The notes: a model not told the origin generated them from the letters alone. Shown: positions 8,154 to 64,000, numbered from the stretch's first letter. The stretch: 64,000 nt of DNA from Nanobdellota archaeon (GCA_042576705.1 JBHPEY010000004.1:1393-65392); one strand, 5' to 3'. Translations and numbers: made by a program.

Positions 8154-8294
8154 CTCGAGTTGCTTATCGCTTTTTCTTTCAATCCGGATCCACAGGCACT
8201 TTGGTGCTCAGCTTCATTTCCAAACCTCGATGCAATATATAACTCCGAAGTTGCTTAAATAGCTCATCCGAGCATGTCCAGTGGCCAGTGAGTC

Positions 8295-8392
8295 AAGCAG
8301 ACCAGCTGAAAAGCTTCAATCTTTGAGAATAAGCACTAGGCGAAATGTTTCTGGATGTCTTGTGAAGCCTCTGAAAGATTGCCGGTCTGCTT
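8295..8392 (+). ncRNA. candidate structured small RNA closed by a 9-bp+ terminal stem
   Basis: AAGCAGACC (8295..8303) pairs with GGTCTGCTT (8384..8392). A TATA-like GCTTAAATAG at 8252..8261 would start transcription near 8285. It contains CTGA and GTGAAG words, but I could not fit a canonical C/D arrangement. Confidence 0.3.
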
Positions 8393-8423
8393 CCTAAAAC
8401 CAAGAACAGGGTCAAGCCCCAAA

Positions 8424-8507
8424 CCACGCTGTCAGATTCTAAAACTGTCTTCGTATCGTTCTGGCCGAAGGCCTAAATCCTATATCGTTCATAATACTGA
8501 AGCGCAA
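8424..8507 (+). repeat. conserved intergenic element, copy A
   Basis: CCACG-CTGTCAGA-TTCTAAAACTGTCTTCGTATCGTTCT-GGCCGAAGGCC-TAAATCC-TATATCGTTCATAATACTGAAGCGCAA. See the repeat-family finding. Confidence 0.8.
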
Positions 8508-8676
8508 CCCACCAAATACAAAACACCACCCACCCATTAGGAAGCGCCACCAACAAATAACCCCTGCCACAAAAACCCTAAAAACCCTTTCAATAGATTT
8601 ATAAACTATCTGAGCCTATACTCCCCCATGCACGACATGTGCAGATCGAAAATAAGATAGATTAGGTGAATAAGTT

Positions 8677-9345
8677 ATGTATGGACAAGGTGGATATGGT
8701 GGGGGCGGAAGGTCCCGAGGTGGTTACGGCGGTGGATCCGGTGGCGGCGGTGGCGGCGGCGGATACGGCGGCGGTGGCGGCGGTGGTTTTGGCGGCGGTG
8801 GTGTCGCTCCAGTCAGTGTCGGTGAAGAGTTAGATGTGCGAATAGAAGCAGTCGGCGAAAAGGGCGACGGCATCGCAAGAAAACGTGGATTCGTGTTGTT
8901 CATTCCGAGCACAAAAGAAGGCGACGAAGTCAGAGTCAGAGTTACAAAGGTTCTGCGTAAGGTAGGCTTTGCAGAAGTTGTAGGAAAGGCGCAAGGCACT
9001 CCTGAAACGTCTGCTCCTCCTGCAAGGGAAGATGCTCCTGCAGCAAGGCCAGCACCTATAGTGCATGAACCAGCACCAGAGGATACAGAGGATTTCGGTG
9101 AAGAACCTGCTGAGGAACCAGCAGCGGAGGAACCCGCAGCTGAGGAACCCGCAGCTGAGGAACCTGTGGCAGAGGAAGCACCCGCTGAGGAACCAGAGAT
9201 GGAAGCCCCTCCTTTACCAGAAGAGGAACCTGCTCCTGAGGCTCCAGCTCCAGAAGTCCCTGAACCTCCAGAAGCTCCTGAGGCTCCTGCGGAAGAAGCA
9301 CCCGCAGAAGAACCAGCAGCCGAAGAAGAAAAAAAGGAAGAGTAA
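8677..9345 (+). CDS. TRAM-domain protein with Gly/Tyr/Arg-rich N-terminus and acidic PAEE-repeat tail
   Basis: VSVGEELDVRIEAVGEKGDGIARKRGFVLFIPSTKEGDEVRVRVTKVLRKVGFAEVV is a TRAM fold pattern. The N-terminal 40 aa are GGYGGGGRSRGGYGGG.., and the C-terminal ~110 aa are (P)AEEPAAEE repeats. Confidence 0.8.
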   Translation: MYGQGGYGGGGRSRGGYGGGSGGGGGGGGYGGGGGGGFGGGGVAPVSVGEELDVRIEAVGEKGDGIARKRGFVLFIPSTKEGDEVRVRVTKVLRKVGFAEVVGKAQGTPETSAPPAREDAPAARPAPIVHEPAPEDTEDFGEEPAEEPAAEEPAAEEPAAEEPVAEEAPAEEPEMEAPPLPEEEPAPEAPAPEVPEPPEAPEAPAEEAPAEEPAAEEEKKEE

Positions 9346-15350: not shown

Positions 15351-15500
15351 AGGCGGCGGAGGGACTTTCAGGAGGCTTCATTGAAACCTCATTTTGAACC
15401 CCCAAATGATCGCTGTCTTCCTTTCATAGCGCGTTAGCGCTCAACACAGCAAGTGTGCCAGTCTGCAGGCGATTGCCTTACCGGATTTGGCGACGCCGCC
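15351..15500 (-). tRNA. tRNA-Cys(GCA) with two introns (anticodon loop 37/38 and T-loop)
   Basis: Minus strand: GGCGGCG-TC-GCCAAATCCGGTAAGGC-A-ATCGC-CTGCAG[47-nt intron]A-GCGAT-CATTT-GGGGG-TTCAAA[ATGAGGTTTCAATGAAGCCTCCTGAAAG]T-CCCTC-CGCCGCC-T. Discriminator U73 fits Cys. One G-U pair in the T stem. Confidence 0.7.
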
Positions 15501-15535: not shown

Positions 15536-15592
15536 TATTTCTATATGGATATATCAAATTAAATTGTTGCAGAGAGATCTGCTTAGCCACTA

Positions 15593-15676
15593 CCACGATG
15601 TCAGGTTCTAAGACTCTCTGCGTATCGTTCAGGCCGAAGGCCAGCTCCTTATATCGTTTCTTTTACTAAAGCGCAA
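15593..15676 (+). repeat. conserved intergenic element, copy B
   Basis: CCACG-ATGTCAG-GTTCTAAGACTCTCTGCGTATCGTTCA-GGCCGAAGGCC-AGCTCCT-TATATCGTTTCTTTTACTAAAGCGCAA. Confidence 0.8.
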
Positions 15677-15704
15677 CTCCTCAAAAAGCCTAAAACAGAA
15701 GTCC

Positions 15705-19694: not shown

Positions 19695-19724
19695 TTTGAA
19701 TCATGAATTTAATGTTAAATTTGA

Positions 19725-19857
19725 CCACGAACCCGGTCGCTGCAAACTGTTTGCGTATCGTTTTTGGCCGAAGCTTCAGGCTCTGCCTGACGGCTTACCG
19801 AATCTTTGATTCGGGAAGAGCCCTTTTCATTATATCGTTTCTTTTACTGAAGCGCAA
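19725..19857 (+). repeat. conserved intergenic element, copy C (central hairpin expanded)
   Basis: CCACGAACCCGGTCGCTGCAA-ACTGTTTGCGTATCGTTTTT-GGCCGAAGC..[branched insert containing CCGAATC-TTT-GATTCGG and GGCTCT..AGAGCC]..-CTTTTCAT-TATATCGTTTCTTTTACTGAAGCGCAA. Confidence 0.75.
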
Positions 19858-19906
19858 GCGGATATGAAAACAATGACATCAAAAGCCGAAGCAGCAATAT
19901 TAATTC

Positions 19907-23289: not shown

Positions 23290-23359
23290 GGAAGAAAGAA
23301 TGAGAAAGAGATTATTTAAGGTTTTGGAGTGGAAGAGGTGAGGACTGAGCCGCAGTTGA

Positions 23360-23464
23360 CCACGCACCAGGCCGCTGCAACCAAGCATCCTGGTTCTAAG
23401 ACTGTTTGACTAAAATTCAGGCCGAAGGCCTAGTCCTATATCGTTTCTTTTACCTGAAGCGCAA
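23360..23464 (+). repeat. conserved intergenic element, copy D (extra hairpin after CCACG)
   Basis: CCACG-[CACCAGG CCGCTGCAACCAAGCAT CCTGG]-TTCTAAGACTGTTTGACTAAAATTCA-GGCCGAAGGCC-TAGTCC-TATATCGTTTCTTTTACCTGAAGCGCAA. Confidence 0.8.
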
Positions 23465-23500
23465 GCGCAAAAAGGAAATGTTCATTCAGCGCCTTTTTGT

Positions 23501-23637
23501 GAGGGGGTCGCCGTAGCAACACGCATGGCAAATCCGACTATGATGCCTTCACTCGCTTCGCGAGCTCGGCATGCGGATTTGCGACTATTGTAGTTTCTCA
23601 ATTTCCCACCCACCTCCCCTAAATTGGCGACCCCCTC
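23501..23637. ncRNA. candidate structured RNA closed by a 12-bp GC clamp
   Basis: GAGGGGGTCGCC (23501..23512) pairs with GGCGACCCCCTC (23626..23637). Nested 9-bp helix GCAAATCCG/CGGATTTGC, then ATGCC/GGCAT and CTCGC-TTC-GCGAG. Strand undetermined. Confidence 0.35.
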
Positions 23638-26280: not shown

Positions 26281-29200
26281 ATGCTGGACAGACTGCTAAG
26301 ACAAAGACGCGCAACAGTTGTTTCATTAGTCTTGGTTCTCTTGGTCCTGGTAGGGATGGGCATAGGTGCCTGGTTCATGAGCGATAGGATGGGCAGCGAG
26401 ATAACAGGTTTTGCAGCAATAGGCCCTGATGATACTTGTGGTGGTACAGGATTCTCGATAACAGCAAACACTGATCTGGCCGGGGACATAACAGGCTGTG
26501 ACGGCAGCGATGAACTAGAGTTCAATACTTACGACGACCTCACACTTGACTGCAAAGGCTATAAGATCAGTAGTACAGCAGGAGCGACCCTGGCCATCGA
26601 TACAAACTATAGGGACAACCTGGTGATTAAGAACTGTGTGATTGAAGGCTTCGACACAGGTATATCTGTGCATTCCAGTTCAGAATATATTCTTATTCAC
26701 GGCAATACATTCAATAATAGTAAAGACATAGATATTCCATCAGGTGAAAACGATGTCAGTGTTTACAATAATCATTTCATGGGACAGGAAGTTGACGACG
26801 TTGCATCAGACACCCTTTTCTGTGTGGCTGATGAAGGTAATTTCTACCAGTCATCGCTGACCCCTGAAGCAGGAGACTGCGGTCCCGTCGATATAACCTC
26901 CCCTGACGAGAACACGCAGGGTACGGCATCAGGCTACGAGTTCCGCGGCAACACTTCAATAACCCTGCAATGGAGAGCGCAGGATTCTCCTAAGACAATA
27001 AGCTACTATGCAGACTTCGCCAACGAATCTGCCCCAAGTACCTGGCAGACGATAGGCCCAGGCCCTGTCACAAACACGAACATAGCGTGGGATATAAGTG
27101 ATTTTGTTACGCCAGAGAACTTTACTATCAGGATAACCGCATATGATGGTGCAATCAATGGGACATCAGACAGCATGAGTATAGCCATTGACAATGACAA
27201 TGACCGGGATGGGTATTCTATGATTTCATCCAGGACATCCTCGGATTCCTGGGACTGCAATGACGCGGACAGCACAATCCACCAGCCAAGTTACCGTGAG
27301 AACTCATCGAGCGCAACCATTACAAACGCCTGCTTCAACGGAGTGGATGACGATTGCGATAGCACGACAGGTGGCGGTACAGACTGGACTGATTCCGGCT
27401 GCGGAGGAAGTTTTAGCGTCGGTTCACTGGACGATACCCTTTACACCAACGGCTCTATAGAGGACCTGACTACATCCAAGCTGAACATATCCGGAAACAA
27501 TTACTATGTCCTTGCCAGCAACTCGCAGGGGCAGGTGGAGTATTTCACCCAGACCGATCTCAGCAGCGTAGATCTTGCTTCTGTGTTCACGATAGGACAT
27601 AATACCATAACAGGCAGCAGCACCCAATACAGCGGCAGGTTCAACAAGGCTGCAAAAGTGACGTTCAAGGGGCTTTCAGAATACACAAAGACGCCCATAA
27701 TACTGGTAGATGGACAACCCTGCAACAGCACGGACTGCGCTGACCAGGAGCCGAGTCTCATAGAGACTTTCTCTGGAACATTATCTTTCGATATAGGGCA
27801 TTTTTCGACATTCACCACTACAAACAATAGCAGGATGGTGACATTCACCCACAACGGGGCAGAAGCAGCAGTGCTATCGAGTCAGTATCCCGCACCGCTG
27901 GAGACCTATCACAGGATAAAATTCTTCTCAAACTACTCAAGATATCCGAGCGGGATTCCTGTCAATAACCTGACCCCGAGCGGGAATCCTGAGACATATA
28001 ACAATGGGTCTTGTAACATCACATTGAGACATCCCAATGCATCAGCGATCTCCGGGGCGGATAATGTGGCGATGGACTATGATGATGTCTATGGTGTATA
28101 TGAGTTTGAGTCAGGGGTTTACAATTTCACTGTTCCTTCTGATTTCTATAGCTATGAGATTGATTGTCAGTCTGATGTGTATGAGCCAGTAAGTGCCTCA
28201 GAGACTTTCGGTGTATTTGATACGACCCCGCCGGAAAGGCCCACTCTGTATCCTCAGATACTGCTGCACCCTTCAAACCTGACAAGCGGGTTGAGTACGA
28301 TAGTTTCAGGTTATTTCGGAGAGTCTGACATAGATTATACTGTGATGGTGCTGCACGGCTCGTGGACATACGCCTTCAATGGTTCTCTTGGCTACAGCGA
28401 TACACACTCTGAATACAAAGGAGATGATATAGTCGTGAATTTTGGCGCGACAAAAGGTCAGGACGTCATATTCACCGCATGGAGTGAAACCACTGAAAAT
28501 GCGCTCCTCCAGTTCAGACATGTTGAGTTATCGAACCACAACAGGACGTATTTCAGGAGGTATTACATCACGCGTGCAAACAGGACAGGTGATGACATGC
28601 GGGTGGAGCTGAACGAGACTCTCGAGAGTGATGTTCCTATAGGCCAGTCCATGAGGCTGTATACCCAGCCATATCCTGCAGGTTATTTCTTCGTGAATGT
28701 CTCTTTGTTTTCAGGTGATAACAGAATAACTGTGTGGGGTGATGATCTTACAGGAAATTCAGGTAATTCCTCGACCGATTGGATAAGCGCAGCTTATCTT
28801 GAGACTGCCCCTGCTGCTGCAGAGCTTTGGCCATTGCCTGCTGCAGTGAACGAAAGTTTCCAGCTGATAGGAAAGCTGAATGAGTCGGTAGAGAGTCTTA
28901 ACCTGTCTGTCAATGTTGTGCAGGGAGATTACATAAACACGACATGGGAGGATGTGTTCAGGAGCAGTCAGCTGTCCGCAGAAGCGCCTGTTTCACAGGA
29001 CCGCCCGGTCAATGCAAGTTTCTTCTATATAGACGGGACTTCTGACTACCCGACCATTAACAGCACACTGGTCTGGAGCGACTCATGGGTTGAGTTCTCC
29101 ACCCATGACAGGGCATATTGGATAAGGTATAACGTGACCAGTGCATCGAAGTCCCCTGGCCAGGATGCCAGGGTGTACATAACCCCTGATCTTGAACAGC

Positions 29201-32200
29201 CAATCACAGCAGCCACCACAAGGGCAAGGTTCTATGATGATTCACATCCACAGGGTTGGTTCAACAACACAGTCGATATCAATATGCTCATGAACAGGAC
29301 GAATGAGATATACACTGTGGGTTTCCGTGGTGGGATCGAAGGATACCCGTCTGTTTCTCAATACGTATACAAGGATATGACTCCTCCTGTATTCGATCTG
29401 ACAGGCATCCCGAATTTCTCTAACACAAGGTACTTGACACTGAGGTTCAACCTATCAGATGATTACAAGATCAATTATTCGTCAATACAATATGTGATAC
29501 TTAGTGGGACCAATGGTACTATACCAACCTCATGCAATGACCTGTCAGTGAATCTTTCCCTGCTGGAATGTCAAGGGATTTATAACGTGACCACGAACGG
29601 CACCTATCTGACCTGGTTCTATGCTGAGGACGTGTCAGGATTAGCGACCAACATCTCCAAAAACATCTCTGTCCTGATAACAGAAGTGGACATCACCGCT
29701 GTCCACGACGAGGATGACATAACAAACGATCTCTGGCTGAATTTCAACTGGGATTACACGAACGGAGAGCTGCAGGAGTTCGAATACGCGTTAGGAGATG
29801 AGCCGTATCCGGACACGGATTTTGATTCTGTCAAGGCATGGACCGTGATGTGCAGCGCCGCAGGCAACTGCACACAGGACTGGGTGAATTTCACTCACGA
29901 CAGCAACGAATTAGACCTCAATCTCACAGAGCTGAAGATGAAGACAGGTACTGTCTATTACCTTACTGTCCGTGCAAAGAGCCAGGCCGGAGATTACGGA
30001 GCCATAAAGTCTTCCAATGGCATAATGTTCATAGACCAGACCCCGCCGCAGTTCAAGAACATGACCGACGAGGGCTCCTGGACAAACTCCCTGACCTCAC
30101 TCCAGGCAGACTGGGAATTCGAGGACAATGAGTCTGATATAATCGAGTACATATATTCGATAGGCAACGCGACATATCCTAATTCAGGGTTTGAGAACGC
30201 GCTCACGAGAAAATCTGTTGGTGGGACCCATAATTATGCCTACGAATCAGGCCTCTCGCTCACAGAAGGCCAGAAATACTATTTCAATGTCAAGGCAAGG
30301 AACGGGAACACTCAGATCAACTACAATGGCTCCTGGTCGGGCTGGCAGTCATCTGATGGGATAGTGGTTGATATTACACCTCCCTGGCAGGGAGCGGTCT
30401 CATACACTGGAGGTTATGAGACAACAGGTTATGTGACAATCCAGTACAGCACAGGGAATGATAATGCGTCAGGTCTTGCAGGCGGTATAAACGGCGTGAG
30501 CGGAATAGCTGGTGGCGCCATACTGGCAGGCTCGTCGCCGTTGATAGATGACACCTGTCAGCCTATATCTGATATTGACTTTGTCAACAATACTAACGTC
30601 ACGACTGGCCAGAGCTATACAGAGATAAATGTCACTTCAGGGAACTGTTACGCATTCAGGCTGTTCATCTGGGATAATGCCGGAAACTCAATAACCTATA
30701 AGATGCAGAACGAGACTCTCAGGTATGTCAAGGCAGATCACACGCCGCCATCTGACATAAGCACAATCACTGATGATGGTTTCTTCACATTCGACAGGAA
30801 GCAGCTTCACGCCGCCTGGACCAAAGCATCAGATTCAGGGACAGGCATGTCCCATTACTACTGGCGCATATTCCAGGACAATACAGCAGAGCCTAATGAC
30901 TGTAACATATCATATACCTATATCAATACTTCAGAGAACATAAACTGCTCTCTGTTCATGGACGGCAGCAGCGCAGGCAACGCGACAAATCCGGAGCTGG
31001 CGCTCACAGGTCTTAACCTTACACACAATCATAAGTACTATTTTGCGATAACCCCTTTCGACAGGGCAGGCAACAACGGAACAACCACTTTAAGCGATGG
31101 TATAATCTACATAGACAACGCGCCGCCTGGAGCAGTATCCATATACACAATCAACGAGGACAACGAAAGCTCTTCCCCATACTACACCCAGGACAGGTCA
31201 GGCAAGATAAACATAACAGCTTACGGCGACCTTGATGGTTATGAGGATATCGACAACTGCGTCCTCCTTTCAGAAGATATAGATTATGCAGAAGGAGGAG
31301 GGAGCATAGTCCTTGCGAACTGTACAGAGACAAGAGTGTTGAGCAACAAGTCAGAATTCACTATAGGACTTACAAACCTTTCTCTTATCACTATAACTGA
31401 AGTGTTCTGTGACGCTTCAACCAACAGTTCAGGACAGAGCGCAACCCAAGGCAACTGGAGCTGGCATCTTTCATGCCGTGACGAGCATTGGAATACGCAG
31501 AGCTATTCCCAGAACACGCTTGCATGGTTTGCTGTGGACTGGCCAGAACCACCTCTGATGAGCCTGAGCATGGGGAACATATCCTACGGCACACCAGTAT
31601 ACAGCGACGATGATATCTACTGTGAAGCCACCATATGGGATCCTGATCATTATCCTGGAAGCGCCCTTGACCCGACAAATATCACGATCACATGGAAAAA
31701 GGACGGGCAGGCAATACTTACCCAGTACACCAGCGCATCTGACCCTGAACTGGATGGGGTGTACAACGCATCAGCGATACTTGACTACAGCTACACGCGC
31801 AGAGGTGGCAATATCGCTTGTAATATCAGTGCTGACGATGAGCTGGAACTCACTGGCAGCAATGAGTCTTATGTGACGATAAACAACACTCGACCTTCCA
31901 GGTTAGAGCTGCTGTCTCCTAATGGTGCCACAGTGAAGAACATGACGTATCTTTCATGGATAGGACCCTACGACGATATTGACAGTGATTTCATGACAGT
32001 GGAGATTCAGGTAGACAACGAGAGCGGGTTCAATGCATCCAACAACCCGAGCTTGACTTATGGTTCGCCTGTGAAGTTGACTGTCAACGGCATCGCGGTT
32101 CCAGGCACCCAACGTAACCCTGATATGTATTCAGACATGATTGTCTATGAGGACAATCGTGCAGGCAACTGGGATATCTATCTTTACAGGCTGTCGGATG

Positions 32201-35200
32201 ACCTTGAATCCCAGGTCTCATCCTCTGCAGATGACCAGTCTAATCCGATGATCTACGGGGATTATGTCGTCTATGAGGAAGATATCGGGAGCGGGATGTC
32301 TAAGGTATACCTGTATGATATCAGGTCAGGCACGACTTCTCAGCTTGTCTCTTCGGTAAACAGCACCGGAGTGCATTTCTTTGGGGATTATGTCGCTTAC
32401 AATGACGGTTCAGGATTGAAGTATAAGGACATACTGTCGGGAGATTCAGGTTCTGTTGTGTCTGGGACTGCCGGAGCAAAGAAGATGAAGGTCTATGGCA
32501 AGCACATAGTCTGGATTGAGTCGGATGATGTGGCTTATCTGTATGATATTGTAAGCAATCAGACTGTAAATCTTGGCGGTCCGTATTCTGACACAGAGCT
32601 ATTCGGCTATCTTGTCGCTCTTGAGAACACCACAGGGTCTATCCGCGCGATAGATCTTTTCAACAGGAGCGACGTGGATATATTGGCAGGTTATGATGCA
32701 AGCCTCGAGGGAGCATTGCTTGCGAGAAACGATTCCGGGACGATAAAACTGACTGACTTGCTCAGTGACGTCCTCTATGATGTCTCGATAGGCACGGCAG
32801 GCGCCAACATACGTGTCTATGACAGCCTAATCCTATTTGATGATGGCGCCGATATCTATTACGCTAGACAGAACACGACCCTTCCGTTCAGGTTCGTGCG
32901 TCCGGCCTCTGCGCCGAACATTGCAGCGCATGGTCTGGACACGACAGGATCAATTGACGGGAGGTATTACTGGAGGATAAGAGGCTGTGATAGTTCTTTC
33001 CAGGATAACGCATGCATGTGGGGCACCAACTCGTCAAACAGTTCAGATCCTTCAACGACAGATTATACTACATTGATCATTGATAACACTCCGCCGGGAA
33101 TAACAAGCCTGAGCCCGACAGACGGGTCGATTGTGGCAGGTCAGTTCAGGGTCTATGCGAATATTTCTGATAGCATAAGTGATATCAGCTACGCGAACTA
33201 CAGCATAACCTATTCCAGTGGGGCTGTGCGTGCTTCAGGAGACCTTTCAAAGTCAGGAAGTCTTTGGAACAGCACTCTTCTGGATTTCCTGGATGTCACT
33301 GTCGACAGTTTCACCCTGACCATCTGGGCTAATGATACTATAGGCAACTGGAACAGCGCTGCGATAGACTTCACGGTAAACAGCAACACACCGTGGTTCC
33401 TTTTCGGCGGCAGGGGCGGGACAGAGATAATTGATGGGTCGACAGTGTTCAATGCCAGCATTGACTCTGACTTTATAGCATTCACAGTCAAGGATTCTTC
33501 ATTGAAGATTGTGGGGCCGCTTCCGGCCACCACGACGCGTTTCATCCAGTCAAAAACAGACAGCACTGTCACGAATCACAATTACTCGAATTCCATATCA
33601 GTACTGACCTGGCCCGATGGCACCTACAGGGTCGAGATGACAGGCACGAATCTCGACGGCACGAACAGCGCCAACAGGACATTCTATGTGGACCAGAAGA
33701 ATCCGCAGTGGAGCAGCAACAGGACGTATCCTGCTACGGCATTTGCGGCTGACCTGTTGACATTGTCGATAGACTGGGCGGACACGACCCTGGATGAAGT
33801 CAGGTTCATGCATAATAACACAGACATAACAAACCCGTCAGAGCAGATGCAGATATTTAGCAGTTCAGTATCCGAAGGTCCGATAAACTCATCCGCGATA
33901 GATGTAAGTGCATACATAAACAGGAACTTCTACTGGCGCTCCTGGGCCCTGGATGAGATGGGCAGGACGAACAACACCGCTGATTCAGGGTGGTTTACTG
34001 TATTCATAAACGACGACCCCCCAGATTTTGCAGGGACAATCACTATAGGGTCAGTGGATGAGGACAGCTCTATCACTTCAGGCCTGCCTGCACTCTCATC
34101 ATATTTCACAGACCCGAATGACGGCGGCACATGGGGAGACTTCGATAACCTGACATTCAGCGCGACGTATGATAATTCAAAGCTGAGCATAAGTCTGGAC
34201 CCTGCAACAGGGGCAGTCAACAGCCTGTCAGCGATCAATGACTTCAACGGGGGCACGACAGTCATCTTCAACGCGACTGATTCGTTCGGGAAGATGAATT
34301 ACTCTAACAGTGTCGCCATAACAGTCACGCCTGTCCAGGATGCTCCAAGGTTCTCTGCGATACCGACGGTATACACGACAGAAGACAACACGTCAGTGGT
34401 AAGCTTTGACCTTAGCAGCTACACCGCAGAGCCTGATGGTGACTCGTTCTGGTGGCTATCTCCGATGTATGACAGCACAGTGTTCGACCTGGACGGTTCA
34501 GACACTGCGAACGGCATATTCAACTTCACGCTCAAGGCCGACCAGTTCGGCTTGTACAACATAACATTCAGGGCCTACGATGGGGTGCTTTATGGCTACG
34601 GCAACGCCACAGTGAACATAGCCGGAGTCAACGATGCGCCAGTCATAGGCAACTTCACTTATCCTCCTGCAGGATCCACAAAAGGTGGAATAGTACAGCT
34701 GGCATGGCAGGCTGCAACAGACCAGGTTAATGAACAGCAGACCCTGAACTACGCTGTGGAGTTTTCAACAGACGGTGGGACCTCCTGGACGCTGGTAGCA
34801 GACTACGCCACTCTGGGTTCAGGTCTATATTACAGCTGGGACACGACAACACAGATATCTGGAGAAGAAAGTGTGACTCTAAGGCTCAATGTGACAGACG
34901 GCGTGAGTGTCAGCACACTCACATATCCGATCTTCACCGTAGACAACCTTCCACCGCAGATAACAGTCATAAGGCCGAGGACGACTGACGTGGGAAGCAG
35001 CATCACAACGCAGATAAGCACACTCCAGAATGCAAGCTGCACCTTTAGCATAAACAACACAGGCAGTCCAAGCATCTCAGGCACTTCAGAGACGACCGCG
35101 CATCAGGTCACTGTATCAAATCTCGCTTACAACGTGACATACAACCTGACAGTGAGCTGCACAGACAGCCCTGTCGGCAACTCAAACACGATCTATAAGC

Positions 35201-35577
35201 TCTTCGAACCAAGGGCTCACGCGATGGAGTTCATACAGGCCTACGCCTCGCCTCCATGGGCATACCCTGGCCAGCATGTCAACATCACTCTGGTCATAGC
35301 AGCCAACAACTCCTGGAAGAACATGACGGCGAGCATAAGCCCGACCTCCCAGAGCCTTACGCAGATCAATTTCACGCAGGAAGTGAATGAGTCGAACAAG
35401 TACACGCACCTGACGTCATCGTCGGGCATAGATACGAGCACATTGGGCACGTACAACATGACCATAACTGAATTATGGACTGTCGACGACCAGCAGGTCT
35501 TCCCTGCAGCACCCATACTCATACAGGATATACTAGAGGTCTTTACAGCGGTGAATCAGACCCTGAACATGATATGA
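26281..35577 (+). CDS. giant (3098 aa) N-terminally anchored, sequon-dense surface protein
   Basis: One N-terminal TM (VVSLVLVLLVLVGMGIGAWF). A parallel beta-helix-like stretch (LVIKNCVIEGFDTGISVHSS..IHGNTFNNS). MopE-type Cys/Asp motifs (DNDNDRDGY, DCNDADSTIH, CFNGVDDDCD). Ig/FN3-like repeats with DxTPP linkers. TolB/PD40-like propeller repeats (IVYEDNRAGNWDIYLY, GDYVVYEE, GDYVAYND, KHIVWIE). Cadherin/VCBS-like repeats with VQDAPRF and VNDAPVI. Confidence 0.85.
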   Translation: MLDRLLRQRRATVVSLVLVLLVLVGMGIGAWFMSDRMGSEITGFAAIGPDDTCGGTGFSITANTDLAGDITGCDGSDELEFNTYDDLTLDCKGYKISSTAGATLAIDTNYRDNLVIKNCVIEGFDTGISVHSSSEYILIHGNTFNNSKDIDIPSGENDVSVYNNHFMGQEVDDVASDTLFCVADEGNFYQSSLTPEAGDCGPVDITSPDENTQGTASGYEFRGNTSITLQWRAQDSPKTISYYADFANESAPSTWQTIGPGPVTNTNIAWDISDFVTPENFTIRITAYDGAINGTSDSMSIAIDNDNDRDGYSMISSRTSSDSWDCNDADSTIHQPSYRENSSSATITNACFNGVDDDCDSTTGGGTDWTDSGCGGSFSVGSLDDTLYTNGSIEDLTTSKLNISGNNYYVLASNSQGQVEYFTQTDLSSVDLASVFTIGHNTITGSSTQYSGRFNKAAKVTFKGLSEYTKTPIILVDGQPCNSTDCADQEPSLIETFSGTLSFDIGHFSTFTTTNNSRMVTFTHNGAEAAVLSSQYPAPLETYHRIKFFSNYSRYPSGIPVNNLTPSGNPETYNNGSCNITLRHPNASAISGADNVAMDYDDVYGVYEFESGVYNFTVPSDFYSYEIDCQSDVYEPVSASETFGVFDTTPPERPTLYPQILLHPSNLTSGLSTIVSGYFGESDIDYTVMVLHGSWTYAFNGSLGYSDTHSEYKGDDIVVNFGATKGQDVIFTAWSETTENALLQFRHVELSNHNRTYFRRYYITRANRTGDDMRVELNETLESDVPIGQSMRLYTQPYPAGYFFVNVSLFSGDNRITVWGDDLTGNSGNSSTDWISAAYLETAPAAAELWPLPAAVNESFQLIGKLNESVESLNLSVNVVQGDYINTTWEDVFRSSQLSAEAPVSQDRPVNASFFYIDGTSDYPTINSTLVWSDSWVEFSTHDRAYWIRYNVTSASKSPGQDARVYITPDLEQPITAATTRARFYDDSHPQGWFNNTVDINMLMNRTNEIYTVGFRGGIEGYPSVSQYVYKDMTPPVFDLTGIPNFSNTRYLTLRFNLSDDYKINYSSIQYVILSGTNGTIPTSCNDLSVNLSLLECQGIYNVTTNGTYLTWFYAEDVSGLATNISKNISVLITEVDITAVHDEDDITNDLWLNFNWDYTNGELQEFEYALGDEPYPDTDFDSVKAWTVMCSAAGNCTQDWVNFTHDSNELDLNLTELKMKTGTVYYLTVRAKSQAGDYGAIKSSNGIMFIDQTPPQFKNMTDEGSWTNSLTSLQADWEFEDNESDIIEYIYSIGNATYPNSGFENALTRKSVGGTHNYAYESGLSLTEGQKYYFNVKARNGNTQINYNGSWSGWQSSDGIVVDITPPWQGAVSYTGGYETTGYVTIQYSTGNDNASGLAGGINGVSGIAGGAILAGSSPLIDDTCQPISDIDFVNNTNVTTGQSYTEINVTSGNCYAFRLFIWDNAGNSITYKMQNETLRYVKADHTPPSDISTITDDGFFTFDRKQLHAAWTKASDSGTGMSHYYWRIFQDNTAEPNDCNISYTYINTSENINCSLFMDGSSAGNATNPELALTGLNLTHNHKYYFAITPFDRAGNNGTTTLSDGIIYIDNAPPGAVSIYTINEDNESSSPYYTQDRSGKINITAYGDLDGYEDIDNCVLLSEDIDYAEGGGSIVLANCTETRVLSNKSEFTIGLTNLSLITITEVFCDASTNSSGQSATQGNWSWHLSCRDEHWNTQSYSQNTLAWFAVDWPEPPLMSLSMGNISYGTPVYSDDDIYCEATIWDPDHYPGSALDPTNITITWKKDGQAILTQYTSASDPELDGVYNASAILDYSYTRRGGNIACNISADDELELTGSNESYVTINNTRPSRLELLSPNGATVKNMTYLSWIGPYDDIDSDFMTVEIQVDNESGFNASNNPSLTYGSPVKLTVNGIAVPGTQRNPDMYSDMIVYEDNRAGNWDIYLYRLSDDLESQVSSSADDQSNPMIYGDYVVYEEDIGSGMSKVYLYDIRSGTTSQLVSSVNSTGVHFFGDYVAYNDGSGLKYKDILSGDSGSVVSGTAGAKKMKVYGKHIVWIESDDVAYLYDIVSNQTVNLGGPYSDTELFGYLVALENTTGSIRAIDLFNRSDVDILAGYDASLEGALLARNDSGTIKLTDLLSDVLYDVSIGTAGANIRVYDSLILFDDGADIYYARQNTTLPFRFVRPASAPNIAAHGLDTTGSIDGRYYWRIRGCDSSFQDNACMWGTNSSNSSDPSTTDYTTLIIDNTPPGITSLSPTDGSIVAGQFRVYANISDSISDISYANYSITYSSGAVRASGDLSKSGSLWNSTLLDFLDVTVDSFTLTIWANDTIGNWNSAAIDFTVNSNTPWFLFGGRGGTEIIDGSTVFNASIDSDFIAFTVKDSSLKIVGPLPATTTRFIQSKTDSTVTNHNYSNSISVLTWPDGTYRVEMTGTNLDGTNSANRTFYVDQKNPQWSSNRTYPATAFAADLLTLSIDWADTTLDEVRFMHNNTDITNPSEQMQIFSSSVSEGPINSSAIDVSAYINRNFYWRSWALDEMGRTNNTADSGWFTVFINDDPPDFAGTITIGSVDEDSSITSGLPALSSYFTDPNDGGTWGDFDNLTFSATYDNSKLSISLDPATGAVNSLSAINDFNGGTTVIFNATDSFGKMNYSNSVAITVTPVQDAPRFSAIPTVYTTEDNTSVVSFDLSSYTAEPDGDSFWWLSPMYDSTVFDLDGSDTANGIFNFTLKADQFGLYNITFRAYDGVLYGYGNATVNIAGVNDAPVIGNFTYPPAGSTKGGIVQLAWQAATDQVNEQQTLNYAVEFSTDGGTSWTLVADYATLGSGLYYSWDTTTQISGEESVTLRLNVTDGVSVSTLTYPIFTVDNLPPQITVIRPRTTDVGSSITTQISTLQNASCTFSINNTGSPSISGTSETTAHQVTVSNLAYNVTYNLTVSCTDSPVGNSNTIYKLFEPRAHAMEFIQAYASPPWAYPGQHVNITLVIAANNSWKNMTASISPTSQSLTQINFTQEVNESNKYTHLTSSSGIDTSTLGTYNMTITELWTVDDQQVFPAAPILIQDILEVFTAVNQTLNMI

Positions 35578-42421: not shown

Positions 42422-42539
42422 GCCTCCGTAGCATAGTAGCTAATGCGTCTGCCTCGTAAAATCAAGGTTCCCTTGATTTGGAGTGAAATCTTGATTTCAG
42501 GACAGCAGAAGATCGTGGGTGCAGTTCCCACCGGAGGCT
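42422..42539 (+). tRNA. tRNA-Thr(CGU) with a 45-nt anticodon-loop intron; atypical D and T loops
   Basis: GCCTCCG-TA-GCAT-AGTAGCTA-ATGC-G-TCTGC-CTCGTA[intron 42459..42503]A-GCAGA-AGATC-GTGGG-TGCAGTT-CCCAC-CGGAGGC-T. The D loop lacks GG and the T loop lacks TTC. Confidence 0.65.
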
Positions 42540-42546
42540 TTTTTTT
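42539..42546 (+). terminator. oligo-T terminator after tRNA-Thr
   Basis: A T8 run starts at the discriminator position. Confidence 0.5.
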
Positions 42547-42616
42547 CGTGCTGTCGCGCGGAGTGCGATAGCACTGGGTGGCGCGTGCCAGGCGAGCAAG
42601 ACCAGCTGCGTGTTGT

Positions 42617-42641
42617 TGCAGTTCCCACCGGAGGCTTTTTT
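42617..42641 (+). repeat. 25-nt exact duplicate of the tRNA-Thr 3' end (att-like)
   Basis: TGCAGTTCCCACCGGAGGCTTTTTT occurs at 42520..42544 and again at 42617..42641. The second copy has no matching 5' T-stem or acceptor strand. Confidence 0.8.
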
Positions 42642-45947: not shown

Positions 45948-46001
45948 GAGTCATAATTGTTGTAAGGTCTTTTATAAATATATTGTACAGGGCCGCTGCC
46001 G

Positions 46002-46086
46002 CCACGATGTCTGCGTCTAAGACTGTCTGACTATAGTTTTGGCCGCAGGCCACCTTCTCTATATCATTTCTATTACTGAAGCGCAA
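46002..46086 (+). repeat. conserved intergenic element, copy E
   Basis: CCACG-ATGTCTGC-GTCTAAGACTGTCTGACTATAGTTTT-GGCCGCAGGCC-ACCTTCTC-TATATCATTTCTATTACTGAAGCGCAA. TTTTATAAATA at about 45970..45980 would place a plus-strand start near 46000. Confidence 0.8.
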
Positions 46087-46127
46087 CCAGCCCCTAACAC
46101 CCAAAACATGGCTGCCACAACGGTAAC

Positions 46128-53751: not shown

Positions 53752-53904
53752 GAACCCTCCCTATTTAAATGTTACGAAAATTCACCACTTATCAATGATA
53801 AAAAATAGATATTTATATAAAGAACCTCCAACAGCATGAGAAGGAGTGTAACCAGCGATGATTAAGTGAACACCAGTGCCTCAATGGCAGATGGAGTAAC
53901 TGAT

Positions 53905-54112
53905 GAGCTGGCACAAATCCTTTTTTTCGTGCCGTTGAGCGGAGCGAAATGGCACTGGGTCTTGCGTCCCAGGGTAGCGTAACACGCTGTACTCAGTTGA
54001 GCTGGCACAAATCCTTTTTTTCGTGCCGTTGAGCGGAGCGAAATGGCACTGGGTCTTGCGTCCCAGGGTAGCGTAACACGCTGTACTCAGTTGAGCTGGC
54101 ACAAATCCTTTC
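53905..54112. repeat. perfect 94-bp tandem repeat, 2.2 copies
   Basis: Units start at 53905, 53999 and 54093 (the last is partial). Each unit holds GGCAC..GTGCC..GGCAC (two mutually exclusive hairpins sharing GTGCC), CTGGG-TCTTGCGT-CCCAG and AGCGT-AAC-ACGCT. Confidence 0.9.
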
Positions 54113-54126
54113 TTCAGAATTCTAAA

Positions 54127-55464: not shown

Positions 55465-55510
55465 TTTAGAACAGTCTCCGGTTTATGATTATTTAAATGT
55501 TATCAATCTA

Positions 55511-55619
55511 GCGCCACCCCCGCCGCCTAGCGAGCCTAAACACACAGAAGAAAGAACTGATTCAATCCAAAGAAACTACAAAACACCCAAATATAGTGCG
55601 AGCGCCGTGGGGGTGGCGC
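55511..55619. other. 11-bp GC clamp inverted repeat enclosing an 87-nt A/C-rich segment
   Basis: GCGCCACCCCC (55511..55521) pairs with GGGGGTGGCGC (55609..55619), directly after the stop of the PHP gene. On the minus strand the interior carries oligo-T tracts. Confidence 0.4.
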
Positions 55620-55621
55620 GT

Positions 55622-56434
55622 TCAAAGAAGAAGCGGTTTAGGCTCTCTCTTGTTGAATATGTGCACCTGCTTGACCCCAAGATCTTTGAGGACCTTGATT
55701 ACACTCTCAAAATTCCTGCCAAGATGCTCTGGATGATGAGCATCACTGCCGAGTGTTATCTTCTTCACACCCTTCTCAAGCAACACCTTCAGTATCTTGA
55801 TGTCTGGATACATCCCATCAGGCACAGTCCTTGACCAGCTTGTGTTGATCTCAAACCCGGTATCATTCTCGACAAGAAGCGAAGCGACTTCCTCCCATTC
55901 CGCGCGGACGCTCTCGAAATCAGGCTCACTTATCGCTTTCTTGTAGATATCGATATGCCCTATCACGTCAAAAAGCCCGGTCTGTATCGCTTTCTTCAGA
56001 AGCCTGAGATATTCCCTGTAAAGTTCTCCATGATCCAGGTCCTTTGCTTCTTCACGTGCTTCCGTATGCGAGACAGGGATGCCATCCACATAATGCAGGG
56101 AGCCGAGCACAAAATCAAAAGAATGCTTAGTAAGAAACTCCTTGATATATTCCTCTTCATCCTCTGTATAGCACATCTCTATCCCGAAAAAGATGTTCAC
56201 CCGCCCGTCCTTCTTGAGCTCATCGACTGTTGCGCGGTAAGTAGCCAGATTCTCATCTGTCAAAGACTGTTGAAAATCCCCTTTCACGACCTCAGAAGGC
56301 TCATGATGATTTGTTATGCAGATGTTCTTTATCCCTTTCTCTACAGCAGACTCGTACGCCTCGCGTATGCTCATTTTGCAGTCCGAAGAAACATTCGAAT
56401 GTATATGGAAATCCATCAGCATCTCTATCACCAT
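55622..56434 (-). CDS. PHP-domain phosphoesterase (HisJ-type histidinol phosphatase family)
   Basis: DFHIHSNVSSDC, ITNHHE, GHIDIY and GSDAHH metal-ligand motifs. Confidence 0.75.
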   Translation of the reverse strand: MVIEMLMDFHIHSNVSSDCKMSIREAYESAVEKGIKNICITNHHEPSEVVKGDFQQSLTDENLATYRATVDELKKDGRVNIFFGIEMCYTEDEEEYIKEFLTKHSFDFVLGSLHYVDGIPVSHTEAREEAKDLDHGELYREYLRLLKKAIQTGLFDVIGHIDIYKKAISEPDFESVRAEWEEVASLLVENDTGFEINTSWSRTVPDGMYPDIKILKVLLEKGVKKITLGSDAHHPEHLGRNFESVIKVLKDLGVKQVHIFNKREPKPLLL

Positions 56435-61760: not shown

Positions 61761-64000
61761 ATGACAGACGAACCAGAACAGGACCCAGAGACACCTCCCG
61801 AAGATACAGAGACTGCTACAGAGGAAAATAACGACCGTATCATACCTACAGTAGTAGAGGACGAAGTAAAGCGCTCATACCTCGACTATTCAATGTCTGT
61901 CATAGTAAGCAGGGCACTCCCTGACGTAAGAGATGGGCTAAAGCCAGTCCATCGAAGAATCCTTTTCGCCATGAACGACCTGGGCATGCTCTCTACAAAG
62001 CCTTTCAAGAAGTCCGCAAGGATCGTCGGTGAGGTGATAGGTAAGTACCACCCGCACGGCGACTCTGCAGCCTATGACACAATGGTCAGGATGGCGCAGG
62101 ACTTCTCACTCCGCTACCCGCTTATACAAGGCCAGGGCAACTTCGGTTCTGTTGACGGTGATTCTGCAGCAGCGATGCGATACACAGAAGCACGTCTCTC
62201 AAAGGTCTCAGAAGATATTCTCGAGGACATAAAGAAGGACACGGTTGATTTCCAGCCGAACTTCGACGGTGAGCTGAAAGAGCCGGTCGTTCTGCCGAGC
62301 AAGATCCCGAACCTTCTTGTGAACGGTTCCAGCGGTATTGCAGTAGGCATGGCAACAAACATCCCTCCGCACAACATGTCTGAGGTCATTGAAGGAACGA
62401 TTGCTTTCATCGACAATCCTGAGATATCCCCTGACGAGATGATGGAGCACATCAAGGGTCCTGACTTTCCGACCGCAGGCATCATTTGCGGCATCGGCGG
62501 TATAAGGGACGCGTTCAGATCCGGCCGCGGCAAGATTAGAGTGCGCGCCAAGACAGAGTTCGGCACTGTGCATGGCAGGAACGCAATAATAATCACTGAG
62601 ATACCTTACCAGGTCAACAAGGCCATGCTGATAGAGCACTCAGCTGATCTTGTGAGGAGCAAGCACCTGACAGGCATCCATGACATAAGGGACGAGTCTG
62701 ACAAGGATGGTCTCCGTGTTGTCTTTGAGCTGAAGCATGACGCGACTCCAGAAGTCGTCCTCAACCAGCTCTTCAAGCACACAAGGCTTGAGACAACATT
62801 CGGCATAAACTGCCTCGGATTGATAGACAATGCCCCAAGACTCCTCAATATCCGGGACATCCTGGGATGTTTTGTCGACCACAGGAAAGAGGTAGTCACG
62901 AGGCGCACAAAGTTCGACCTGAACAAGGCAGAGGAGCGCGCCCACATCCTTGAAGGCCTGATAACTGCGTTGAATGACATCGATAATGTTGTCCAGAAGA
63001 TAAAGCAGTCCCAGGATGTAGACACTGCAAGATCACTTCTCATGTCTGACTACTCATTGACAGAGATCCAGGCAAAAGCGATCCTGGATATGCGCCTCCA
63101 GAAGCTAGCTTCACTGGAGCAGGAGAAGATAAAGGACGAGCACAAGTCCCTCCAGCAGCTTATCGCAGAGCTGAAAGGCATCCTGGAGTCAGAGCAGAAG
63201 GTAAAAGACATAATCAAGCAGGAGCTCAATGAGATGAATGAGAAATACGGTGACGCAAGGCGTACAGAGATAAGCACCGACGTGGAAGAGGACATATCTG
63301 TAGAGGATCTTATCGAAGAAGAGGACATGGTAGTCACCATAACCCACGCAGGCTACATAAAGCGCATCCCTGTTGACACATACAGGAGCCAGGGCCGCGG
63401 CGGAAAAGGCATAATCGCAGCTTCAATGAAGGATGATGACTTTGTAGAGCATCTTTTCATAGCATCCACGCACGCGCAGGTGCTTCTTTTCTCGAACCAT
63501 GGACATGTATACTGGTTGAAGGTGTATGATATCCCTCTCGGTTCAAGACAGGCCAAGGGAAAAGCTATAGTCAACCTCATAAGACTCAAGGAAGGCGAGC
63601 GCATCAAGGCCTTCATTCCAGTGCGTGAGTTCGATGACCAGCATTATGTGATGATGTGCACAAAATCAGGCACAATCAAGAAGACATCGTTAGAGGAGTT
63701 CTCAAGGCCAAGGCGCGGCGGCATCAGGGCAATCAACATAAACCAGGGCGACGCTCTGATGGACGTTGTCATGACCGACGGCAACATGAATGTGATAATA
63801 GCGACGAGAAACGGCATGGCTATAAGGTTCTCAGAGAACGATGTCAGGCCCATGGGCCGCGCAGCGGCAGGTGTCAGAGGTATCTCATTGAAGGACAAGG
63901 ACTCTGTGATAGGTATGATTCTCGCAGAGGATGAGAAGACCATCCTTACAGTGACTGAGCATGGCTATGGAAAACGCACACCTGTCTCTGAGTATCGTTT
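61761..64000 (+). CDS. gyrA: DNA gyrase subunit A (3' end beyond the window)
   Basis: My own translation from the ATG at 61761: ..[100 protein letters not shown].. The frame stays open to base 64000. It is absent from the ORF track because it has no stop in the window. Confidence 0.93.

Follow-up and report, generated by a model that had tools for sequence, protein, structure and literature searches.

What is the short intergenic sequence that recurs five times, always in one orientation, within 64 kb of an archaeal genome? The stretch in question, hereafter the window, comprises 64,000 nt from Nanobdellota archaeon (GCA_042576705.1, JBHPEY010000004.1:1393-65392), and an initial annotation made from its sequence alone had reported there five same-orientation copies of an ~85-nt element. 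We find that the five copies constitute a genuine, oriented, non-coding multi-copy element, and they are best read as paralogs of a lineage-restricted non-coding intergenic module. As to what the module does, we lean tentatively towards a paralogous family of short, weakly structured RNAs, which would be read rightwards from the A/T-rich promoter region of the neighbouring gene and would act through their sequence.

All five copies lie on the plus strand at the places first reported and can be aligned over ~85-110 nt. Searched on both strands with an nhmmer profile of the copies, the window yields these five (E 1e-22 to 1e-28) and no further match. The 27-nt 3' block has three matches in the window at up to 3 mismatches, where 100 shuffles gave an expectation of 0, and ACTGAAGCGCAA has five matches at up to 1 mismatch against 0.28 expected; since both counts are far above the shuffle expectation, chance is excluded. 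Individual blocks were not found alone elsewhere in the window, save for chance matches within coding sequence. An apparent sixth copy at 63975-64000 is false, as it lies inside a GyrA-like coding sequence. This C-terminal coding region (63600-64000, plus strand) runs off the end of the window and for that reason is absent from the list of open reading frames (ORFs); the 99-aa minus-strand ORF that is listed at 63600-64000 is probably spurious. The five copies, lettered from left to right, are as follows.

8403..8509, plus strand: copy A (nhmmer 8403-8510, E 1.9e-26); 5' module (ACAGGG) at 8406, CCACG at 8424, hairpin GGCCGAAGGCC at 8463-8473, 3' block to GCGCAA at 8507
15567..15678, plus strand: copy B (nhmmer E 4.3e-28); CCACG at 15593, hairpin at 15632-15642, 3' block to 15676
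19721..19860, plus strand: copy C (nhmmer E 5.8e-22; fold z -2.9); TTGACCACG at 19721, 58 nt at the hairpin position (19766-19823), 3' block to 19857 followed by GCG
23356..23467, plus strand: copy D (nhmmer E 2.4e-26); TTGACCACG at 23356, 5' module (ACCAGG) at 23366, CCAAG at 23381, hairpin at 23420-23430, 3' block to 23464 followed by GCG
45985..46088, plus strand: copy E (nhmmer E 1.9e-28); 5' module (ACAGGG) at 45987, CCACG at 46002, hairpin GGCCGCAGGCC at 46041-46051, 3' block to 46086

The unit is longer than the ~85 nt originally proposed, at ~105-140 nt, and starts ~20 nt further to the left: CCACG is preceded by a conserved 5' module, ACAGGGYCGCTGC, common to A (8406), C (19731), D (23366) and E (45987) and present also in homologs outside the window. 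Copies C and D alone share an additional TTGACCACG at their 5' ends, which contains the CCACG of D at 23360; the counterpart in D of the CCACG of the other copies is CCAAG at 23381. The CCAGG..CCTGG hairpin previously described as an insertion in D is a product of misalignment, the supposed insert being the family-wide 5' module. Two other changes were described correctly. In E the hairpin loop changes from GAA to GCA and the stem is kept, and in C the 11-nt hairpin of the other copies is replaced by 58 nt (a 47-nt expansion) that fold into two hairpins; C also lacks ~20 nt, comprising the CCACG block and TTCTAAG. The copies are mosaics, since C groups with D by its ends and with A and B by its middle block. 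Short motifs recur inside the element (GTCT/AGAC four times; TATCGTT twice, 28-30 nt apart), and conserved columns, including the blocks GTATCGTTCTGGCCGAAGGCC and TGTCTGCGTCTAAGAC, are clustered and separated by saturated linkers (variance of smoothed identity, p=0.003 for the window copies; p<0.001 with relatives added, which is partly ascertainment). This clustering suggests constraint on each copy, and not recent copying alone.

No known RNA or mobile-element family accommodates the element. A small ORF was rejected: A and B give similar peptides (PRCQILKLSSYRSGRRP and PRCQVLRLSAYRSGRRP) with apparently conservative changes, but the PRCQ..YRSGRRP frame is disrupted by a frameshift in C and a TAA in D and, in B, lacks a start codon and has a TAG upstream; moreover, the copies read the 3' block in three different frames. 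Rfam 15 gave no match at the gathering threshold in the whole window; matches at E up to 10 around B and D were chance matches far below threshold, and those at homolog loci were noise. ARAGORN detected no tRNA at the copies, and with introns allowed the sole credible candidate in the window was a tRNA-Thr away from any copy (42422-42539). The 3' block does contain CUGA, but there is no C box RUGAUGA (the sequence is ACGAUGU in B and E, ACGCUGU in A and AAGCAUC in D), and on direct reading of the copies the flanks are not complementary and no terminal stem stands beside C/D boxes. The earlier conclusion that the element is not a tRNA, 5S or C/D RNA thus holds, and H/ACA, riboswitch and tRNA-like readings were likewise rejected on their boxes and on Rfam. 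The 3' block had only a chance Bacillus match in GTDB representative genomes and none in JGI metagenomes, and the literature searched contained nothing relevant. The element is a new family of a known general kind, either a dispersed intergenic repeat or a small-RNA gene family, absent from Rfam and from the literature searched.

The tRNA-Thr(CGT) region (42422-42640, plus strand) contains a 45-nt intron and was found only with the intron option of ARAGORN. Immediately behind its T8 terminator come a ~70-nt module (CGTGCTGTCG...GCGATAGCAC...) and a repeat of the tRNA 3' end (GCAGTTCCCACCGGAGGC and a T-run), an arrangement suggestive of a small insertion by which the 3' end of the gene was duplicated.

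A profile of the window copies alone gave a weak match in one relative, L002 (E 0.0017). The core pattern GTATNGTTCNG(N)CCGAAGGCC...TAT, used as bait in metagenomes, gave three further loci: L009, beside NusA/L30e; L010, between a hypothetical gene and Taw1 and identical to L014 and L016; and L008, which was rejected as a bacterial chance match with dissimilar flanks (p=0.37). Both L009 and L010 are DPANN-type. Conservation of the core is partly circular, as L009 and L010 were fished by the pattern and are missed by the window-only profile once the core is masked; because the core was the bait, the flanks were tested apart from it. The 60 nt upstream of the core resemble the 5' parts of the window copies and are collinear with them (L002, p=0.018; L009, p=0.015; L010, p=0.001), and the 3' flanks of L002, L009, L010 and L008 show no similarity to the window copies, which indicates that the family shares its 5' two-thirds and core across lineages and that the 3' ends are lineage-specific. 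Three other DPANN assemblies probably contain homologs that have this 5' part and the core TGTATNGTTCTG(G)CCGAAGGCC in common with the window copies, in positions that are not syntenic.

Occupancy differs between relatives. The spacer between RNase Z and EndA, which holds copy E in the window, is ~90 nt long and empty in L002, L005 and L011, and in L013 it carries a different ~160-nt insert closed by a long helix; at L013:4385-4565 (minus strand) the insert, an undescribed structured RNA-like element between divergent promoters, is closed by a helix of >16 bp with GCAGTACTGC repeats. At the LTD/RNase J locus there is a homolog in L002, in the same orientation and directly after tandem small-RNA-like units that end in T-runs; the window has tandem small-RNA-like units there, and L011 has neither. 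At the Taw1 locus the element is present in L014 and absent from L019 (82% Taw1 identity), where the left TATA is joined directly to the A/C-rich promoter region of the right gene, and this empty site delimits a 154-nt insert in L014. An apparent 115-nt deletion of the element in L015, a second assembly of the L014 species, is not an empty site: it is a 100-N scaffold gap. Gain and loss of copies at different loci points to spread by duplication or insertion into promoter-adjacent intergenic sites.

In two further relatives (L017 and L018; 83% and 80% Taw1 identity) the Taw1 slot holds a different, hitherto undescribed and clearly structured RNA-like element (L017:1016-1128 and L018:6104-6268) with four common helices, 34 predicted pairs, 8 of them compensatory, and a z-score of -4.4; L018 has a 52-nt expansion in one loop. 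The L014 element shares with that of L018 both flanks and 22/27 internal bases. Judged by predicted pairing, the same type of slot in sister genomes thus holds structured, RNA-like elements. A covariance model of the L017/L018 element detected no window copy and no L014 homolog.

The only match of that model in the window is weak (E=2.8) and lies at 55509-55623 (plus strand). This region, which GCGCCACCCCC/GGGGGTGGCGC close, faces the RNase J promoter head-to-head and shares TAGCGCCAC...GCCGCC with the L017/L018 element. The tandem units of the window lie at 53830-54114 (plus strand), where a C/D-like small RNA (GCGATGATTAAG...AACTGATGAGCTGGCACAAATCC and T7) is followed by two 100%-identical 94-nt units, each starting with a CGTGCC...GGCAC hairpin module and ending with the last 17 nt of the small RNA and a T-run. 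This arrangement is kept in L002:2650-2930 (minus strand), with the element homolog directly after it.

The position of the copies relative to genes is consistent. Every copy is intergenic and has to its left the start of a gene or RNA gene on the minus strand (5/5), in agreement with the initial annotation, although the immediate left neighbour of B is a previously unannotated tRNA-Cys gene. The left neighbours are these.

Left of A, minus strand: hairpin region, then a 98-aa ORF
Left of B, minus strand: two-intron tRNA-Cys gene, unannotated, 67 nt away
Left of C, D and E, minus strand: KH gene, Fap7-like gene and RNase Z, respectively

To the right of A and E lies a divergent plus-strand gene (a TRAM protein and EndA, respectively); to the right of B, C and D a gene or RNA on the minus strand has its 3' end. 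Every copy is preceded by T-runs when read on the minus strand. An A/C-rich tract had been described after every copy; it is clear after A and E and partly so after B, but not after C and D, and in the homolog of one relative it is part of the promoter region of the neighbouring gene and is kept at the empty site.

Several of these neighbours deserve a description of their own. The tRNA-Cys(GCA) gene (15351-15500, minus strand) is interrupted by two introns, one of 47 nt that follows the anticodon loop and one of 28 nt within the T-loop. A TTTTAAATA promoter box stands ~25 nt upstream of the gene, which ends in a T7 terminator and is found by ARAGORN only after manual splicing. A long hairpin of ~100 nt (AAGCAGACC...GGTCTGCTT, 8294-8395) adjoins copy A on the left. 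Beyond copy D, a ~127-nt region at 23511-23637 (probably minus strand) has a 12-bp closing stem (GAGGGGGTCGCC/GGCGACCCCCTC) and an internal CTCGC-GAA-GCGAG hairpin, followed on the minus strand by a hairpin and T5; it has no Rfam match and shares GAGCTYGCGAAGCRAG with the L017/L018 element. The TRAM-domain protein to the right of A (8677-9345, plus strand) has a long Gly-rich N-terminus and an acidic Pro/Glu/Ala-repeat C-terminus, which explain the tandem repeats in the DNA at 8702-8822 and 9103-9316.

The host, represented by a metagenome-assembled genome (MAG), is a tiny-celled archaeon of the DPANN group and of Woesearchaeota/Nanoarchaeota type. The RNase Z beside copy E has a 100%-identical counterpart in an NCBI 'Nanoarchaeota archaeon' MAG; identity drops to at most 79% in the next relatives, and many matches further down the list are named Woesearchaeota. 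The G+C content of the window is ~48%, and its cumulative GC skew declines over most of its length. Genes with Pfam matches are mostly housekeeping genes (RadA, RPA, topoisomerase VI, primase, RIO1, a KH/Dim2-like protein, a Fap7-like kinase, RNase Z, EndA, FEN1, Trm5 and RNase J), and a single ORF of 3098 aa occupies 26281-35577 (plus strand).

We scored promoters with a matrix made from the upstream regions of 25 genes of the host genome. Its consensus, AATTTATAAATA, is centred ~27 nt before the ATG, a spacing that fits leaderless mRNAs. By this scoring the element has no canonical promoter of its own. The suggestion that TATATCG acts as a TATA box with a start at GCGCAA is weak, as this region scores at most 3.8, against mostly 8-15 for gene promoters and 7.1 for the 99.9th percentile of all positions. 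The right-hand genes carry canonical TATA boxes of their own. In most copies and homologs the A/T-rich TATA region of the neighbouring gene lies 10-25 nt before the 5' end of the module. Two signals next to copies are these.

45969..45980, no strand assigned: A/T box CTTTTATAAATA between RNase Z and copy E, by score a strong promoter in both directions (12.5 on plus, 13.1 on minus)
23470..23505, no strand assigned: hairpin CAAAAAGG..CCTTTTTG with a T5/A5 run, directly after copy D, read from the sequence

Read rightwards, the first of these would set a start at ~46002, the first base of CCACG. A/T boxes in plus orientation lie to the left of E (12.5), B (5.1) and C (3.7) and, by eye, also of L010/L014 (TTTATATA) and L009; by the 27-nt rule, rightward transcription of E, B, L014 and L009 is then predicted to begin 0-12 nt before CCACG. 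Applied to the left TATA of the L017/L018 element, the same rule falls on its first helix. Copy A may share a transcript with its upstream hairpin region, where TATA-like boxes are present at ~8233-8262, and the hairpin after D could be a terminator in both directions, between D and the minus-strand RNA at 23511-23637. A minus-strand transcript is also conceivable, because the A/T boxes on the two sides are nearly symmetric.

The structural evidence is modest. RNAalifold recovers a 4-bp GGCC-GNA-GGCC hairpin (4 invariant pairs) as the sole conserved pairing and no covarying pair, either for four window copies or for seven sequences including relatives, on both strands, a comparison of low power. 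Minimum free energy (MFE) z-scores of A, B, D and E are -0.2 to -1.2 on the plus strand, no better than shuffles, and minus-strand values range from -1.0 to +1.0; the exception is C, whose plus-strand value of -2.9 comes from its inserted segment. In the L002 and L010 homologs the hairpin stem has lost one base. An 8-bp helix (GCAGAGAG/CTCTCTGC) and an ACGAT/ATCGT helix are possible in B, and a closing helix between the 5' module and the downstream tract can form in A (9 bp), E and L014. Two hand-picked additional helices available to B are 70-72% paired across the copies, with one compensatory pair, and 112/500 shuffles do equally well. The claim that the element evolves like a structured RNA is therefore not supported, given a single 4-bp hairpin, no covariation, ordinary MFE values and additional helices at shuffle level, although the changes in C and E do fall at the hairpin.

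The reading that we tentatively favour combines these observations as follows. The A/T region of the neighbouring gene would fire in both directions, and the rightward transcript would start 0-12 nt before CCACG. It would carry the linear motifs TGTCWG, TCTAAGAC and GTATCGTTC and one GGCC-GNA-GGCC hairpin, and would end in or just past the U-rich stretch of the 3' block or, in D, at the hairpin and U5 ~35 nt further on. Such an RNA would act by its sequence, either serving as a platform for proteins or pairing with a conserved target, rather than through an elaborate fold, because conservation lies in primary sequence and not in pairing. In favour of this reading, the changes at the hairpin keep the fold (loop of E, expansion of C), and the 47-nt insertion in C is easier to tolerate in an RNA than in a phased DNA site. 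The head-to-head arrangement is found in 5/5 window copies and in L014, a promoter-like plus-oriented box stands to the left of E, B, C, L010/L014 and L009, a structured RNA-like element occupies the Taw1 slot of L017 and L018, and small-RNA-like units stand beside the L002 homolog. The non-coding status and clustered conservation of the copies also count for it.

Several observations weigh against this family of RNAs. There is no covariation and no conserved helix of more than 4 bp, and the folds of A, B, D and E are at shuffle level. The best-conserved bases in this genome (CTGAAGCGCAA) lie past the U-rich stretch that is the candidate RNA end, a stretch in which copy A lacks a U-run. No TATA-like box lies at a suitable distance from A or D, and the box of C predicts a start within the element. 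The 5' module would stand between TATA box and start and would thus be conserved as DNA and not as RNA. The A/T boxes on either side would suit a minus-strand transcript almost equally well, and the closing helix of L014 is followed by TTTT on that strand. Finally, co-evolution of the 5' and 3' closing helices was rejected, the comparison of cognate with non-cognate duplex energies being borderline (p=0.047).

The alternative that survives best, although we consider it doubtful, is that the element is non-autonomous mobile DNA without terminal inverted repeats (TIRs), either a relic of a hairpin-dependent single-strand transposon of the IS200/IS605 'PATE' type (palindrome-associated transposable element) or another selfish repeat. 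It would have spread into A/T-rich promoter-adjacent sites, and its conserved blocks would be sites needed by the mobilising enzyme. The element is multi-copy, with 5 copies in the 64 kb of the window against 2 in ~119 kb of DNA from relatives, its loci are non-syntenic, and its relationships are mosaic (C with D by its ends, with A and B by its middle). Presence and absence between related genomes was found at the E locus (spacer empty in L002, L005 and L011) and at the Taw1 locus (filled in L014, empty in L019), and the RNase J locus has a homolog in L002 and none in the window or L011. All copies lie on one strand in a region where cumulative GC skew mostly falls, as single-strand transposons do, and the scaffold gap in the second assembly of the L014 species lies exactly over the element. 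Copy E is flanked by a 10-bp direct repeat, CTTTTATAAA (p ~0.025), which consists of two TATA boxes.

The hallmarks of mobility are otherwise lacking. The best inverted matches between flanks are 7-9 bp (p 0.075-0.86 against shuffles), no consistent target-site duplication was found (p>=0.27 for seven of eight sequences), and the left junctions share no target motif, the preceding bases being T, A, T, A, C, C, C and C. Save for the TATA-box repeat of E, both searches thus agree with the initial annotation, which saw no inverted ends or duplications of the kind expected from a miniature inverted-repeat transposable element (MITE). The single 4-bp hairpin lies in the middle of the element, whereas a PATE would have sub-terminal hairpins at both ends. 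No transposase or integrase family, the Y1 transposase (TnpA) expected of a PATE included, had a Pfam match among the scanned window ORFs, which include most of the long ones and about a dozen of which match no family at all. Searches of plasmid and phage records found no similarity, and scans of viral contigs gave nothing or only high-GC chance matches. Conserved blocks between saturated linkers also fit old, selected copies better than decaying insertions. Mobile repeat and small RNA could both be true descriptions.

Sequence conservation without conserved pairing, together with short repeated motifs, also counts for a DNA-level reading. An unlikely alternative is a cis-acting DNA module (an array of protein-binding sites, upstream activating sequence or insulator) just upstream of the left gene's B recognition element (BRE) and TATA box, which would influence that gene's transcription or shield the gene from transcription nearby. 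The element is always upstream of the promoter of the minus-strand gene, and the T-runs that precede it on the minus strand place it between a terminator and the next promoter. The 5' module of E, C and L010 starts ~12-16 nt from the TATA centre, roughly at -40 relative to the start of that gene, and archaeal activators usually bind around -40. Yet the same housekeeping genes lack the element in relatives, the left TATA lies anywhere from ~5 to 50 nt away, and the nearest protein-coding gene is ~270 nt away in A and B. Moreover, 105 nt is long for an operator, the 47-nt insertion and 20-nt deletion in C would break phasing, and no obvious regulon unites the neighbours, except that they are information-processing genes, like most genes in this genome.

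Quite improbable in our view, though it would reconcile the small-RNA reading with mobility, is a family of 'promoter-parasitic' small RNAs, in which a promoterless module spreads in one orientation beside resident TATA boxes and borrows their bidirectional activity. If true, the element would be at once a functional RNA and a mobile element of a new kind, without TIRs or duplications, and related slots in sister genomes would be filled by other fast-evolving structured RNAs.

The near-symmetry of the A/T boxes raises the question of strand. There is little probability that the product is instead a minus-strand RNA, TTGCGC...CGTGG, either derived from a 3' untranslated region or independent, and made from a right-hand promoter or by read-through. 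The reverse complement of the element follows closely on a co-oriented gene in B, C, L002 and L009, the right-hand TATA in E (and by eye in L014) sets a start 12-20 nt before TTGCGC, and the linker is purine-rich on the minus strand (AGGA/AAGG). The closing helix of L014, AGCCAGCA/TGCTGGCT, is followed by TTTT on this strand, but its extended form requires two G-U pairs that are present on the plus strand only. T-run terminators stand between the upstream gene and the element in B, C and D, there is no consistent right-hand promoter, and the orthologous RNA of L017 and L018 suits initiation on the plus strand.

The compact, highly structured RNA of several helices proposed initially, with insertions and deletions marking helix tips, we consider as improbable as a minus-strand product. 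The expansion in C and the loop change in E do sit at the hairpin, and B has its 8-bp and ACGAT/ATCGT helices. Against this, RNAalifold supports only 4 pairs with no covariation on either strand, the additional helices (70-72% paired) offer 1 compensatory pair, z-scores are near zero, the hairpin of D came from misalignment, and a stem base is lost in L002 and L010. An internal promoter, with TATATCG as TATA box and a rightward start at or just past GCGCAA, is very improbable: conservation does stop 27-31 nt from TATATC, about where a start is expected, and A, E and L014 have a plus-strand gene downstream, but the region scores far too low (at most 3.8 against mostly 8-15), the 3' block is not common to homologs from other lineages, the right-hand genes have canonical TATA boxes of their own, and in B, C, D, L002 and L009 transcripts would only be antisense to the 3' ends of genes.

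DPANN genomes are very small, with little spare DNA, and their non-coding RNAs are almost unexplored. In such a genome a conserved 105-nt module at ~1 copy per 13 kb is unlikely to be junk. If the element proves to be a family of RNAs, organisms thought to be minimally regulated gain one more regulator or cofactor; if it is mobile, it is an archaeal element without TIRs and with an unusual preference for promoter-adjacent sites. More generally, standard tools miss much RNA here, including multi-intron tRNAs, tandem small-RNA units and hairpin-closed RNAs, which matters for the annotation of these MAGs.

Among known systems, the multi-copy bacterial small-RNA families Qrr1-5 (Vibrio) and LhrC1-5 (Listeria) have conserved linear motifs. 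Like the element, they have several paralogs of 70-120 nt per genome, with unpaired blocks, a simple hairpin and a U-rich end, and they vary in copy number. They differ in having conserved promoters of their own and proven transcripts and targets, whereas the element has no internal promoter, its transcription is inferred and its host is a DPANN archaeon. The bacterial intergenic repeats BOX (Streptococcus pneumoniae), REP/BIME, ERIC and Correia are mosaics. They resemble the element in being short, modular, non-coding, multi-copy and near promoters or terminators, with modules absent or expanded as in C. REP, ERIC and Correia are strongly palindromic or have inverted ends, in contrast to the single 4-bp hairpin of the element, and they belong to another domain of life and share no sequence similarity with it.

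Archaeal MITEs and PATEs are likewise small, dispersed, non-autonomous in appearance and present or absent between relatives, and a one-strand orientation bias is typical of IS200/IS605 relatives. The element differs from them in that it lacks inverted ends, a target duplication, hairpins at both ends and a common target motif, and in that the scanned ORFs include no transposase. Archaeal C/D small RNAs, which occur in many copies per genome and are often unannotated in MAGs, are of similar size and have CUGA near the 3' end, but the element lacks a C box, C'/D' boxes, a terminal stem by the boxes and an Rfam match. The structured element of L017 and L018 differs in having four helices and 8 compensatory pairs, and its covariance model misses the present family. 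Nevertheless, it lies in the same slot between divergent promoters, has its flanks and part of its interior in common with the L014 homolog, and carries a G(A/C)A-triloop hairpin, and its GCCGCC...TGTCAGC motif is also present in the 5' part of copy E.

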